A DNA stretch of 64,000 nt from the NCBI RefSeq assembly GCF_964204645.1, contig NC_134025.1, positions 28,190,299 to 28,254,298 of the forward strand. Reading direction: 5' to 3'. The notes under the pieces are model-generated. The model did not search any database and was not told the origin of the DNA. It saw only the letters and a list, made by a program, of their open reading frames with translations. The DNA comes from Tubulanus polymorphus (lineage: Eukaryota > Animalia > Nemertea). This document shows, piece after piece, positions 19,632 to 49,232 of this stretch (its first letter is position 1; each line of letters starts with the position of its first letter). The position numbers and the translations under genes were made by a program.

Positions 19632-20762
19632 CTAAACAGCAGTTAATTGTCCTGGCCCAGTCGTGACCATCGTCATTTCAACCTCATCCGTGACGTCACT
19701 GAGTGCGTGATCGTTCTGTGGACGTACGCATGCGCAACAACAAAATAAGTGCCTGTTAAAATATGATCTGAAGGTCTGATCCAACAAGTAGATAGTTATT
19801 GGATTAATGCAAGAGTTCAAGAAAATCAAACAGAAGCCAGTTATTTTGAAAACGTGCCACGTCATGTTAAAATGTCCAGGATCGAAATAAAACCACATCA
19901 GATAAACATGTCTCGGAAACCAACAAATTATGAAAACCAAAACTAACGCAAGAACAACTCCGGCCAATTTGACACGACGTTTTTTCATTTGATTCACGTT
20001 GTTTCCTGTCGTTGTTTGGGATAGGGTCAGTTTGTTGTCATCTGTGAGGGCCGTACGTTCGACGGCGTAACTGCTGAATCCTGTGTTCATCAACGTCGCC
20101 GCCAAATTAATGTAACAAACAGCAATGATTATAACAGGAATTGCGAACAATACGACAAATCTCGCGCATATGTGATAACGAATGTAATTCGTCCATTCGG
20201 TAGGATACGGGGTACATACACAGAAATGTTGGTTATCAGATGAGTGATATCTTATAACGGTAGCGGTGATAAGATCTGGCATGCCTATGAGAAGGGCCAA
20301 CGCCCACATCACAAGTATTGATATTATAACCCGATTCGAACTGGTAGTTGCTTGGTACCAAGACGGGCTCAAAATCAGTTTGTAGCGTTCGATACTTAAC
20401 GCGGTTAGAGTAAATATTACGACGCACGTTGAAACGGTTTGGAGAAAATCGACAATTTTGCAAATTGTAACGCCAAATGGCCAACTGGTAAGGGTATACA
20501 CCGTGGCGGTGAAAGGTACGCAAATGATGATCATAACTAGGTCAGCCGTTGCCAGGTTGATTATGTAGGCGTTCGGCACCGTCTTCAAAGCTCTGTGTCT
20601 TATGACAACGTAAAGAAGCGTTCCGTTTCCGAGGCAACCGAGAACAAACGTCATCGCGAAAACAATAGGTACAACAATTGACTCGATTGTTTGTGCGGGT
20701 TCGTACTCACCCTCTCTTGATGTTACGTTTAATTCTGTTACGTTCTGCATGAAGTCGACCAT
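19632..20762 (-). CDS. Rhodopsin-class neuropeptide GPCR of the CCHamide/excitatory-peptide (EP)/bombesin-BRS3 receptor family, intronless CDS, ~376 aa
   Basis: First ATG at 20762 (MVDFMQNVTELNVTS, two N-glycosylation sequons). Family-typical motifs are VVPIVF..LGNGTL, VPNAYIINLA.ADL, TALSIERY, ICWFPRHVYLMWFYF and WHVFKITGFCL.FLNSCINP, plus a C-terminal CCC palmitoylation cluster. Confidence 0.9.
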   Translation of the reverse strand: MVDFMQNVTELNVTSREGEYEPAQTIESIVVPIVFAMTFVLGCLGNGTLLYVVIRHRALKTVPNAYIINLATADLVMIIICVPFTATVYTLTSWPFGVTICKIVDFLQTVSTCVVIFTLTALSIERYKLILSPSWYQATTSSNRVIISILVMWALALLIGMPDLITATVIRYHSSDNQHFCVCTPYPTEWTNYIRYHICARFVVLFAIPVIIIAVCYINLAATLMNTGFSSYAVERTALTDDNKLTLSQTTTGNNVNQMKKRRVKLAGVVLALVLVFIICWFPRHVYLMWFYFDPGHFNMTWHVFKITGFCLIFLNSCINPITIYLLDQTFRSYFNRHLFCCCACVRPQNDHALSDVTDEVEMTMVTTGPGQLTAV

Positions 20763-21685
20763 CGTATCCACAGCCCGTCGCAATAACAAATAAAAAGTGC
20801 GCAAAGTTCGCTAACTAATTCCGGACAAAGTATGTGTCCTCCTTACACTGGGCGTTCGAACGTCACTCTGTCCTCAATTCTCGTATTGTCTTAGCGCTTC
20901 TGACGATTGCAGTTGAAGAATTAACTTCGCGGCTGCACTTTGTTCATCTTTGATGCTGCAAGATTCATATAGCAGCGCCATTGATCTCCACTGAAACACT
21001 GATCACGTGTTCAGAAACGCCAGGGTAGCTGCTGAGATGTTTCTGAGAATGTGACCATAGACAGCGCGAAGTCTGATAGATATTTTACTCGAGGGGTAAT
21101 TACCAAATAATTAACCTATTCAGTAATGTAAACGAAACTAATCGAGGAGATACATACATTTTTACGTTTAAAAAAAATTCTCATTCCGCGTACGATAATG
21201 TCGAGCTATTATAGTTAATTGGCTTAGGTCACGAAACGACCCGTATGTAGATTAATGTCTGTGTTTATGACGATGAAAAAACCCGCGGTGTGATATTTAG
21301 ATAGTAAAATAGAATAGCTGTTGAATCAAAGTTTGGTGATTTGTTTTTTTTTTTGGTTTAATTACTTAAAACTATGGAGGATTGAGCTTCCCCTGATGGG
21401 ATGAAATTAAAAAATCGGCGCGAAAATAGTTTTGGTGCTGACAACGTTTGCGTCGAAGGCGTCACCGGTTTAGTGTTTTATGTGAGCATCCGAGAAATGG
21501 ATGTTGTGATCTGTACTGACAGGTTAATTAACATGACACCCGCATCATAGTCTAGAAAATCCCTGTTTCATTCATTCCACTCCCAACATCATGACGTGCG
21601 TGATTTTTACTTGTTGGATTATTTATCCGTGTCTTGTTTTATTGCGGTTCTATCGAAATACATAACCTCCATCGAAAGTATATTG

Positions 21686-46600: not shown

Positions 46601-49232
46601 TCAACTCTTATGTAATTTATAATATCATTATCGAAGGCGTTGTAATCTAAGTGTCATCTGAAGTGTGTTAGTTGGTTTGGTCATATTCGGCAACTCGTCC
46701 ACCATACGTATAATACGTTGCTTAATAGGCCATTTGTGTGGTTTCTTTTCTATTCATCCATATTTTCGCTAATAGTAAATGATGGCAAGGTTATGAATAC
46801 GGAAGAAGATATGAAATTGGCTTCTATTAAGGGGATGACATTAGTGGACTACATTGACTGGGAGATTACCCTAGTTAGTCAGCTTAAACATATGTCATCA
46901 TTTCCGACTTTACTTCCAAGACAAGGTAGAACGAATTGTCAGACAAATATAATCAACTTTATACGCCTTACCTTATACTGCGACCAGAAAAGAGAAAGAG
47001 AGAGTAGAGAAATGATTTCTATAGACTTGCGTTTATCTGGGTATTTTGGTCTGCTTTTAGTTGGAAAGATGATATATCTATACATTACAGATCATTTTGT
47101 GCGCGAACATACAAATGCCACTGATCATGAATCTAAATTAACGGATGGTGTTTATTCTAACCTACAACCGCCTTAAATGCAGTTGGTTGTTTGATTCGAT
47201 TGATAAATTTAACAAAAAATTGTTGTTTGTGCTTGTGAAAAAAGTGCTGTACCGTGGTGATTACCAAACTGCGCCCGAAGAAAGACCGGACTACAAAGTG
47301 CTCGTCTGATGCTTCGACAAGTTGTTAGACAAATGTACTTAGGTTATAAAAAGTACTTGAATCGGGGATACTTGTAGTCGATGAAAGATAATTTTTCTTT
47401 GAAGTATTCTTCTTATACAGCAAAGATAATTATCGAATCAATTAAATCGACGCTGAGGAACTGAACGAACAGTAAACTTTTTAAAATGTATTGAAAAACA
47501 CTTAACATCCTCAAACTCCAACTAGCTTAATTTGATGATAAGGCTGTTCTTCTATTTGAATATATTGCCAACGGGAATCTTTGATCACTACCACGAATAT
47601 TTCACATTTGAAGAACTAAAGAGATCGGTCTTGCGGTACCGTGTATAATCATCGTCTTTGGTGTGAGAGGTCCACTGGACTTTTTATTCAGATGGGAGAT
47701 TTCCATTTGCATATCGATGCTACTCCCCTGTCGGTATTACTTCACTATCTATCACAGAACCGACGATGGGTAATGTTATCAAGGATTAGTAGGGCCTACA
47801 TTGTAGTAGATGGTAGCATTGGTCGCTCGTGATTTAATTCTGGTTCAATTTATCGTTGCAGGTAAATGTACAGGAAAATGGCTAATACATTCGTGCATGG
47901 CCGGAAACTCTGGCAAGCGTTCGGATTCCAGTGCAGCAAACAGATTACAATCACAAGAAACTTTAGAAAAATTACTCCGAATCATTAAACAAGAGATAAA
48001 GATCCAGTCGGATCAACGACAGTTGGAAAACCCGTCGATAGGTAGCAGCATTAGCAGCACGTACCAAGATGAACCAACGCCTAGTTCAGTTTTATGGGAA
48101 CGTTTGGTAAGATTAATAATGCATCGCCCATTGTTCCAATAAACATCAGCGACAGACAGAAGTTTATACTGGCCACTAGAGTTGCTGAAGCGTTTAACAT
48201 GACTACAAACATTTTATCCGTGTTTATTAGATTTGAGCTGTCCGTGCTACCGCAAGTGAATACAAACCGTCCACTGTCAAATAACTTGATTAATTTCGCA
48301 TCCCAGAGGCCTTCACCGGCGCTTACTATTTCTGAAACAAAATATCATTGTCGAAGAATCGAATTTCTATTGTTATAACTCGGAATATATTTCGTTATCT
48401 ATTTATGATGACCGTCCGTCTGTATATGTCTAATCATTTCCGCTGGCGTGTACCAATTTGAAAGACTTCGTGCACAGTATCATATTACGCCCTGAATGTC
48501 TTAATCATTCTACGTATATATATGAATATATCATACCATGTATATATGATTTCGTTCTGTAATATAAACAAAGGATAAACAATTATCTATAAGTTTGTAT
48601 TCAACTATCCAAACGTAATACGGAGTTTTCTTTCATGATTTCGACTTGGTGACGAAATTCGAGTTATTCAGTGACGAATGCTAAACGGAAAGCACATACG
48701 TTAATGAAAAATGTCCTTGGTGCGCCAGCGGTGATCAGGCTGAACCGTATGGGCTTATGGTATAGGCCTAATAACTCGAATTTCGATATTTTAAGTCGAA
48801 AAAATTTAAAAAAAAAATCTATCAATTTCATCACGAAGCCTGTAAGAATTAGTTTGTAATCAATTTTTTGAGGAGATGGAACCTCGCGTTGAAAAATGAA
48901 ATAAATATGGCGATGCTTTAAGCCGGGTGTAGGTAGACCTTTGCGACTGCTTGCGATTTATTGAGACGCTGCCCGTGCGGATGACCTAGACTATTCGCAC
49001 ACGTCGCAGTCGACCTATGCACCCATCTGTCGCGTTGCAACTACCTACACCCGCATTTATGGCAACTTTACCTCATTAGGTAATGGTGACTTCGCTTCTT
49101 TGGGTAATGTTACCGAAAGGTAATATGACTTTCATTTTCCTCAGCAAAGTACTTATCATTATTTCTCTTATTTCTATTCAGCTGACGAGACTACGAGATC
49201 AAGAAGAACGCAGAAGACGCAGACGCAAGTGA
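28602..49232 (+). CDS. Excitatory peptide (EP/GGNG; CCHamide orthologue) neuropeptide precursor, 126 aa, 3 coding exons
   Basis: Exon 1 is 28602-28686 (signal peptide MRMRTNGAWSLVLLVAVYICVSRTYVQA, G|gtaaga). Exon 2 is 47862-48106 (ttgcag|GT AAA TGT..., phase 1) and encodes GKCTGKWLIHSCMAGNS-GKR plus propeptide, ending WERL|gtaaga. Exon 3 is 49182-49232 (ctattcag|LTRLRDQEERRRRRRK*). The total is 381 nt in frame. The peptide matches the EP pattern KCxGxWxIHxCxGGN-amide and directly follows the signal peptide. Confidence 0.85.
29431..29484. repeat. Imperfect (TA)n/(TACATA) microsatellite
   Basis: TA run interrupted by CA/TG. Confidence 0.85.
33802..33947. repeat. 73-bp tandem duplication (2 copies) containing two short palindromes
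   Basis: TAAATATTATTTTCAATA...CAACTTAATGTAAGTTG occurs at 33802 and 33875. Confidence 0.9.
39759..39850 (+). mobile_element. Possible tRNA-derived SINE head
   Basis: A-box-like GATAGCGACCGGG and B-box GGTTCGATCCC (39822-39832). I cannot fold a full cloverleaf. Confidence 0.35.
45950..45987. repeat. Imperfect (GA)n microsatellite
   Basis: GAGAGA/GAGT run. Confidence 0.8.
48921..49056. mobile_element. PIF/Harbinger-like MITE in intron 2 of the neuropeptide gene
   Basis: TIR core CGGGTGTAGGTAG / CTACCTACACCCG, with TTA on both flanks as a putative TSD. Confidence 0.6.

Follow-up and report, generated by a model that had tools for sequence, protein, structure and literature searches.

Genes for a secreted peptide and for its receptor lie together at the Brassica SCR/SRK locus and at the basidiomycete pheromone-receptor loci, where suppressed recombination and allele-specific recognition keep the two genes linked. 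For neuropeptides and their receptors, the genes are as a rule unlinked. In the genome-wide test of Hurst and Lercher (PMC1309615), a human set of ~265 contained 0 ligand-receptor pairs within 0.2 Mb. The excerpts available from PMC2865548 and PMC1309615 place opioid peptides and their receptors, and human ligands generally, on the same chromosome without close linkage; for the vertebrate opioid, MST1/MST1R, and FGF/FGFR pairs, co-expression or co-duplication has been proposed (PMC2865548).

The closest described relatives of the genes studied here belong to the EP/GGNG-CCHamide system. In Lineus longissimus (PMC6617912) and Platynereis (EP receptor 1, AKQ63032), a signal peptide is followed by a peptide with two Cys, Trp, His, and Gly-Lys-Arg, and the receptors belong to the bombesin/endothelin-related group. 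The available sections of PMC6617912 describe no genomic linkage, and our literature search turned up no report of EP-receptor linkage, in agreement with the original prediction that such linkage was undescribed. In Aplysia a second receptor, R2 (apEP/CCHaR2, XP_005098643), responds to EP with an EC50 of 28 nM, requires a promiscuous G-alpha-q, and is found mainly in the CNS (PMC12969411).

Here we describe a locus of Tubulanus polymorphus in which an EP precursor gene lies head-to-head with an intronless gene for a receptor of this family (Table 1). The window, that is, the whole stretch of DNA analyzed, is 64,000 nt long. The two genes share a chromosome, as do the vertebrate pairs described in PMC2865548, but those are far apart, whereas the Tubulanus genes are immediate divergent neighbors separated by 7 kb. 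Like the self-recognition loci, the locus joins a secreted peptide gene and a receptor gene; the likeness is one of gene layout alone, allele matching and polymorphism being features of those loci. The peptide and the receptor group resemble those of Lineus and Platynereis, with the differences that the Tubulanus peptide ends Gly-Asn-Ser instead of Gly-Gly-Asn, and that the neighboring receptor is a divergent paralogue, whereas the Lineus and Platynereis receptor is of the R1 type. The best explanation, to which we give a probability of about 0.45, is that the neighbor is a second-type receptor (R2) that likely binds the EP peptide, and that the pair is likely an old lophotrochozoan neighborhood, with enhancers in the 7-kb gap that would serve both promoters. 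The locus offers a concrete place to ask if selection ever favors ligand-receptor linkage. It further indicates a second EP receptor lineage in nemerteans, from which one receptor had been reported before, with the pocket retained and the signaling face altered. If the linkage is conserved, gene neighborhood would become a tool for pairing invertebrate orphan GPCRs with peptides.

Table 1. Features of the EP-receptor locus (positions in the window)
Feature	Position	Strand	Description
Receptor transcript span	19514..21001	- (from ORF; contigs strandless)	X2 contigs with small gaps; at least 239 bases of 5′ UTR
Intronless class A GPCR, divergent second lineage R2, 376 aa	19632..20762	-	Assigned by Pfam 7tm_1, best named matches, and trees
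Intergenic region, divergent	21002..28195		7,194 bases or fewer; may hold shared regulatory DNA (putative role)
(TA)n microsatellite	21686..21825		~0.7 kb upstream of receptor transcript; short-read contig (run X1) stops inside
EP precursor exon 1	28196..28686	+	CDS 28602-28686 encodes the signal peptide; preceded by 5′ UTR, unspliced from at least 28196 on; phase-1 donor
Intron 1	28687..47861	+	19,175 bases, GT..AG; separates signal peptide from mature peptide; joint in X2 contig
EP precursor exon 2	47862..48106	+	Predicted 17-residue mature peptide (codons to 47911), Gly-Lys-Arg 47912-47920, then propeptide
Intron 2	48107..49181	+	GT..AG; identity with RefSeq model; X2 contig departs at 48106
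EP precursor exon 3	49182..49232	+	CDS end with stop

The plus-strand neuropeptide precursor that had been predicted from ATG 28602 proved to have three exons with GT/AG ends and a maintained reading frame encoding 126 aa. The spliced product is letter-for-letter identical to the T. polymorphus RefSeq protein XP_074662438 (LOC141914986). The predicted 19-kb separation of the signal-peptide and peptide exons was borne out by a contig from run X2, which joins both ends of the junction 28686-47862 at a depth of 23, skips the intervening 19,175 bases, and puts the 28602 exon in the same transcript. The other predicted junction, 48106-49182, is that of the RefSeq model, and the same X2 contig departs at donor 48106 and continues 872 letters beyond it. 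Run X2 lacks an RNA label and was judged RNA-like from the splice joint and from coverage of 5 of 30 bins; run X1 covered 30/30 bins, including intron 1, without the splice joint. Two other readings of exon 2 were excluded: read-through to its own stop, because the X2 contig departs at the donor, and a start at the upstream in-frame ATG 47810, which sits within the spliced-out intron. Judging from contig size, the 3′ UTR likely reaches ~50050, with AATAAA at 50006 and 50079. The 5′ UTR is covered by X2 contigs from 28196 onward, and a full CRE-type palindrome, a candidate element, lies inside it at 28469-28476.

Precursor residues 5-23 form a hydrophobic core (mean hydropathy up to 3.2), and a single copy of the predicted mature peptide begins at residue 29. 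The peptide has two Cys eight residues apart and the conserved Trp and His, followed by Gly and a dibasic site. In a by-eye comparison with published EPs, this spacing matched the description in PMC12969411 and the precursors in the available part of PMC6617912. Most lophotrochozoan EPs end GGN-amide, whereas in the Tubulanus peptide Ala-Gly-Asn-Ser precedes the amide donor; departures from GGN are also seen in other nemertean EPs, and this ending is identical in the Tubulanus EP already published. Processing would consist of cleavage behind the signal peptide and at Lys-Arg, amidation, and formation of one disulfide. There was no Pfam match for the precursor. CCHamide clusters were top-ranked for it in the Atlas (0.92), yet only 3 of the 10 best hits were in that family and the result was flagged unreliable. 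Of 3 candidates examined in the search for relatives, 1 was a hit, and a phmmer scan run in full returned the protein itself and two long repetitive proteins; these searches were insensitive, missing the known Lineus and Platynereis EPs, so their blanks do not bear on paralogues.

On the minus strand, the predicted EP/CCHamide-family GPCR with its ATG at 20762 was confirmed as an ORF with a Pfam 7tm_1 match (E 9.4e-52). Its best named matches were the cluster of Lineus XP_064629313 (44%) and Platynereis EP receptor 1 (42%). In this word-limited search, the specifically named matches among 61 hits were all EP/CCHamide or bombesin-type, and none of the 61 carried an elevenin receptor name. The top solved structures were NMBR, GRPR, and BRS3. 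The receptor had been called the probable cognate receptor. Its family held, but it is a second, divergent type and not the orthologue of the deorphanised Platynereis and Lineus receptors. A separate canonical Tubulanus R1 exists (XP_074663055, 57% identical to Platynereis EPR1) on the same chromosome, with EP, R2, and R1 all on one 32,063,560-base contig; the AU test rejected grouping the window receptor with Tubulanus R1 (p 5e-9), and one-to-one orthology with EP receptor 1 was discarded. An all-nemertean receptor clade was likewise rejected (AU test, p 1.5e-4), and a recent Tubulanus- or nemertean-specific R1 duplication was ruled out by the tree and AU tests. The phylogeny separated the window receptor from a group made up of R1 and the arthropod receptors (support 100/98), in trees that are unrooted, contain no elevenin, bombesin, or endothelin receptors as an outgroup, and give the R2 group long branches open to attraction. 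Saccostrea XP_061177059 (oyster) groups with the window receptor (support 99/96), and the Lineus protein nearest to it differs from the deorphanised Lineus receptor. As judged from these sequences, the second lineage takes in Lineus and the oyster, and perhaps Lingula.

With identity of only 39-42% to R1 receptors and a position outside the R1-plus-arthropod clade of the unrooted tree, the neighbor might instead be an orphan of EP-family or bombesin-like type that has diverged and has a different ligand or none, R1 alone transmitting the EP signal. In the window receptor ERY replaces DRY, and ICL2 and helix 8 are altered, features that suit such an orphan, as does the single EP receptor that Thiel et al. 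report in the Lineus transcriptome. We consider this improbable. The ORF is intact and expressed (RNA-like contigs), the TM5-TM7 signature residues H5.38, R5.42, R6.51, H6.52, H7.32, K7.35, and F7.39 are common to the window receptor and the deorphanised Platynereis EPR1, and the still more divergent second receptor of Aplysia is activated at 28 nM.

The two faces of the receptor were compared with Platynereis EPR1 using position lists whose numbering is approximate. At 29 predicted pocket positions the window receptor was identical at 17 and Tubulanus R1 at 16; at 30 G-protein-side positions the counts were 12 and 26, respectively (Fisher p 4e-4). Pocket identity was mostly not significantly above background (12/29 for the window receptor with Tubulanus R1, 11/29 with Aplysia R1). 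On this prediction the window receptor keeps the peptide-pocket residues, and its G-protein face has diverged. The EP peptide would act on both R1 and the window R2, and R2 would couple differently inside the cell while keeping its pocket; compare Aplysia R2, which does not signal through the Gq native to CHO cells. An EP response of a second-type receptor has been demonstrated only for Aplysia R2, whose kinship with the window receptor is putative. In both species one chromosome-scale scaffold carries a divergent second EP receptor as well as a canonical R1, but the Aplysia R2 ORF is 585 aa (1755 bp), compared with 376 aa for the window receptor.

The predicted head-to-head arrangement with a 7.84-kb separation was reproduced as an ATG-to-ATG distance of 7,839 bp in divergent orientation. 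The covered transcript 5′ ends, at 21001 for the receptor and 28196 for the precursor, leave a gap of at most 7,194 bases, and the true starts may be somewhat closer. The prediction of no recognizable gene in between also stood. Fifty frames were listed and 6 (TA)n frames dropped; 0 of the remaining 44 frames of at least 45 aa between the transcripts had a Pfam match, and no Rfam family or tRNA was found in the window. The window contains a single occurrence of the EP motif, compared with 2 matches in 100 shuffled windows. The read coverage given here applies to positions outside 21681-28189, and continuity across the (TA)n run, in which the X1 contig ends, depends on the genome assembly.

A bidirectional promoter has divergent transcription starts within ~1 kb. 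With covered 5′ ends 7,194 bases apart, the two genes are not such a pair; 7 kb exceeds the range of a classical bidirectional promoter. The EP and receptor promoters had no motif in common and no shared repeat, and CRE half-sites were not enriched at them (4 and 4, compared with 126 in the whole window). Both genes were covered in the one RNA-like run, X2, a co-occurrence that implies no expression ranking. Shared regulatory DNA, if present, might give overlapping neural expression, with R2 as a local or feedback receptor and R1 serving broad targets; shared enhancers and autoreceptor feedback are putative features of the EP-R2 locus.

The structure of the receptor gene bears on whether R2 arose as an intronless (retro)copy of the EP receptor, placed near EP early in lophotrochozoans, that took over neural enhancers of the EP gene and was retained on that account. 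Neither the CDS nor the covered UTR of R2 contains an intron (no splice joint was found in the X2 contigs over 19514-21001), its head-to-head position and long branch suit a fast-diverging copy, and many metagenome receptor loci match only partly, with breaks near residue 225 or starts near 263. Lack of introns is not diagnostic of a (retro)copy, however, because the R1-type loci L001, L009, L010, and L012 are also single-exon and most genes in the window have long single ORFs. In addition, the R2 duplicate is not recent, and we regard this origin as improbable.

The age of the neighborhood was assessed from other species. In PMC12969411, one segment, HiC_scaffold_6:45471172-46843127, is assigned to the Aplysia precursor and to R2 in the legends to Fig. 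1A and Fig. S4B, without comment and with neither distance nor orientation stated; R1 lies at 61.9-63.5 Mb of that scaffold. Given the same scaffold, the chance of one shared segment is ~2-4%. The co-location is weakened because it rests on two legends, in which a copying error is possible, and because 1.37 Mb is not adjacency. The Aplysia transcript assembly numbers are far apart (precursor 283550, R2 40997), in a numbering whose basis is unclear. Precursor and receptor accession numbers were thousands apart in 5/5 species compared and do not suggest adjacency: the gaps were 3,281 in Lingula (an R2-leaning receptor), 4,645 in Folsomia, ~4,010 in Cryptotermes, 20,697 in Crassostrea gigas, and 2,271 or more in Drosophila. 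An EP/CCHamide exon was found in 0 of 78 metagenome receptor loci kept from 120 confirmed (369 kb in total, ~4.7 kb each), which are too short for a 27-kb distance and include no close R2. Conservation of the linkage is hinted at by one indirect case (Aplysia, within 1.37 Mb) set against weak counter-signs from accession numbers.

These accession gaps, and a 7-kb gap without a shared motif, suit cognate but neutral neighbors, in which an ancestral shared chromosome and intrachromosomal shuffling in this lineage left two genes with their own promoters adjacent without function. Peptide and receptor genes on the same chromosome but unlinked are known (opioids, PMC2865548; human ligands, PMC1309615; both as far as the available excerpts go). 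With an assumed 50 systems and 20,000 genes, such an adjacency would arise by chance in ~1% of genomes, and many genomes are scanned; for the EP system alone, however, the chance is ~2e-4 genome-wide, and Aplysia has its precursor and R2 on one 1.37-Mb segment, with a divergent receptor in both species. Neutral adjacency seems somewhat less likely than the preferred reading. The fullest form of the preferred reading, an ancestral lophotrochozoan cassette, is tentative but possible: EP and a dedicated R2 would have been linked since the nemertean-mollusc split, with one regulatory domain driving both, R2 serving as a feedback receptor with its own G-protein coupling and the canonical receptor serving distant targets. 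[quoted passage not shown] The Aplysia target neurons B20 and B34 carry both receptors, so R2 is not only an autoreceptor there.

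The head-to-head layout of the original prediction was borne out in Tubulanus polymorphus, a palaeonemertean: the ATGs of the receptor gene and the excitatory peptide (EP) precursor gene, expected about 7.84 kb apart, were separated by 7,839 bases. No recognisable gene was found between them. The gap held 50 stop-to-stop frames of at least 45 aa; when six (TA)n frames were excluded, 0 of the remaining 44 had a Pfam match, and the whole window gave no Rfam or tRNA match. The precursor translation was identical to RefSeq XP_074662438 (LOC141914986, T. polymorphus), which is placed on a contig of 32,063,560 bases. 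We conclude that the pair is a real, unusual arrangement of known parts.

Features of the window
Feature	Position	Strand	Description
Adhesion-type GPCR array	1-13456	minus	three tandem copies of a 5,275-base unit, 95-97% identical
(TA)n runs	18672-18903, 21686-21825		long; on both sides of receptor gene
EP-family receptor	19632-20762	minus	single exon, 376 aa; Pfam 7tm_1, E 9.4e-52
EP precursor exons	28602-28686, 47862-48106, 49182-49232	plus	126 aa in total; GT/AG ends
High-copy repeat	32807-32901		short; EP intron 1
UDP-glycosyltransferases	50591-55303	plus	two intronless genes, DNA 91% identical
Cys-loop ligand-gated ion channel subunit exons	59439-60694	plus	Neur_chan_LBD, Neur_chan_memb
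LDLa + LRR + 7tm_1 receptor	62172-63998	minus	incomplete at window end

In the precursor, a 17-residue peptide comes immediately after a hydrophobic signal sequence and is itself followed by Gly-Lys-Arg. The peptide has two Cys eight residues apart, plus the Trp and His typical of EPs, and the design is that of the EP/GGNG precursors in the supplement of PMC6617912 and Table S3 of PMC12969411, in agreement with the predicted EP-type precursor. The EP motif occurred once in the window and twice across 100 shuffled windows. Pfam gave no match to the precursor; ESM Atlas ranked CCHamide clusters at the top, a result flagged as unreliable, with the family common to 3 of the 10 best matches. Because the mature EP and that published as T. 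polymorphus (PMC6617912 supplement) have 12 of 17 residues in common by our own count, the published EP may be that of a paralogous, second EP gene, or of another species so named.

Two sequencing runs of one study, X1 and X2, covered the region. X1 was DNA-like: between 28190 and 48180 it covered 30/30 bins and showed scattered differences without any splice. An X1 contig stops within the (TA)n run that spans 21686-21825, and over 21681-28189, which takes in this run, continuity is assembly-based. X2, judged RNA-like although its record carries no RNA label, covered 5/30 bins. One X2 contig joined 28686 to 47862 with GT..AG ends, skipping 19,175 bases; the signal-peptide exon, predicted to lie about 19 kb upstream of the peptide exon in the same gene, is therefore part of the peptide transcript, and assignment of exon 28602 to a different transcript was ruled out. 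The same contig departed at donor 48106 and extended 872 letters further, a length that would put the end of the EP transcript at about 50053, with an AATAAA signal on either side. X2 coverage further included the 5' UTR of the precursor (from 28196) and, with no splice joint, most of the receptor between 19514 and 21001; thus both genes, at most 7,194 bases apart, were expressed in one sample, in contigs that give neither strand nor expression level. In the contigs of both X1 and X2, the repeat in EP intron 1 reached very high depth; it had no tRNA or Rfam match.

All specifically named proteins among 61 matches to the window's receptor were EP/CCHamide or bombesin-type receptors, and the nearest solved structures were NMBR, GRPR and BRS3. 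The prediction of a cognate EP receptor thus held for the family; however, the receptor is of a divergent second type (R2), and Tubulanus has a separate canonical receptor (R1). A profile search identified this R1 as XP_074663055, with 57% identity to the deorphanised Platynereis EPR1 and on the same contig as the precursor. The closest named relative of the window's receptor was Lineus XP_064629313, which differs from the deorphanised Lineus receptor; it is a second EP-family receptor of Lineus longissimus, whose transcriptome was reported to contain one. A tree of 25 rows grouped the window's receptor with the Lineus protein, a further relative and a Saccostrea receptor (support 99/96), with Lingula next, and set R1 plus arthropod receptors apart (100/98). 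The same R1/R2 split appeared in a quick tree of 78 rows and in another tree of 26, with an unstable position of Lingula; the trees contained a chosen subset of retrieved receptors and no outgroup, and the window's receptor group has long branches. In AU tests, a clade joining the window's receptor to the R1 of Tubulanus was rejected at p 5e-9, and a clade of all nemertean receptors at p 1.5e-4. Three metagenome loci from one assembly (L025, L039 and L050) encode very divergent intronless EP-like receptors that form their own long-branched group.

At 29 positions taken to line peptide pockets, the window's receptor and Tubulanus R1 had 17 and 16 identities to EPR1; at 30 G-protein-side positions they had 12 and 26 (Fisher p 4e-4), residue numbering being approximate for both sets. 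This pattern of a kept pocket and a changed inner face fits a putative receptor of the same ligand with other coupling. Aplysia R2 behaves as such a receptor: EP acts on it with an EC50 of 28 nM, only with promiscuous G-alpha-q, and it is CNS-dominant (PMC12969411). Pocket identity of the window's receptor to Tubulanus R1 (12/29) and Aplysia R1 (11/29) was not above background. We regard a non-cognate orphan as an improbable reading of the neighbour.

In the reading that we prefer, with a probability of roughly 0.45, the precursor would yield a cyclic amidated peptide that acts on both R1 and R2, and two separate promoters, 7 kb apart, would share enhancers. These would give R2 a neural pattern overlapping EP, with a local or feedback role. 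The layout, the splice and the co-occurrence in one sample are the observations on which this reading builds. In Aplysia, EP and R2 overlap partially at the ganglion level, and R2 is found in target neurons too (PMC12969411). Promoter capture by an intronless receptor copy, an alternative compatible with the single exon, seems unlikely.

The predicted microsynteny drew evidence on both sides. Legends in PMC12969411 place the Aplysia precursor (Fig. 1A) and R2 (Fig. S4B) at the same segment, HiC_scaffold_6:45471172-46843127, and R1 is at 61.9-63.5 Mb of that scaffold; by these coordinates the Tubulanus pattern recurs, with EP, R2 and R1 on one scaffold or contig. These legends are the strongest sign of conserved linkage, the chance of a common 1.37-Mb segment being ~2-4% when both genes lie on one scaffold, 63.5 Mb or longer. 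One legend could have been copied in error; the co-location goes unremarked in the main text, from which the words synteny, adjacent, chromosome, linkage, locus and neighbor are absent, and Aplysia transcript assembly numbers were uninformative on it. Counting against linkage, precursor and receptor accessions differed by thousands in 5/5 species (Lingula, Folsomia, Cryptotermes, Crassostrea gigas and Drosophila), accession order being a rough proxy for gene position; the receptor was R2-leaning only in Lingula (233-kb scaffold), and both receptors were compared only in Drosophila. Accessions of two neighbouring Cryptotermes peptide genes differed by 4. None of the 78 metagenome loci was long enough to bear on linkage.

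If 20,000 genes are assumed and two receptors counted, chance adjacency would be ~2e-4 for the EP system and, over 50 systems, ~1% per genome. A survey across many genomes might turn up an adjacency of this kind, so selection is not shown by this genome alone; neutral adjacency of the EP and R2 genes, set against the Aplysia legends, is the less likely but a serious alternative. Opioid peptides and their receptors are a described case of same-chromosome linkage (PMC2865548); in a human test, close ligand-receptor pairs were not over-represented, and no pair lay within 0.2 Mb (PMC1309615). The peptide, the receptor family and the second molluscan receptor are already published. No report of EP/CCHamide precursor-receptor adjacency was found in the literature searched, which covered few subscription papers and left the Lottia and Capitella genome surveys outside.

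Receptor genes are abundant in the window. Each unit of the array at its start, which is a recent one judging from the sequence, has a long single ORF with a Cys-rich ectodomain and then a predicted C-terminal secretin-family 7TM (Pfam 7tm_2). The incomplete receptor at the opposite end is presumably GRL101-like. The UDP-glycosyltransferase pair begins ~0.6 kb past the likely EP transcript 3' end.
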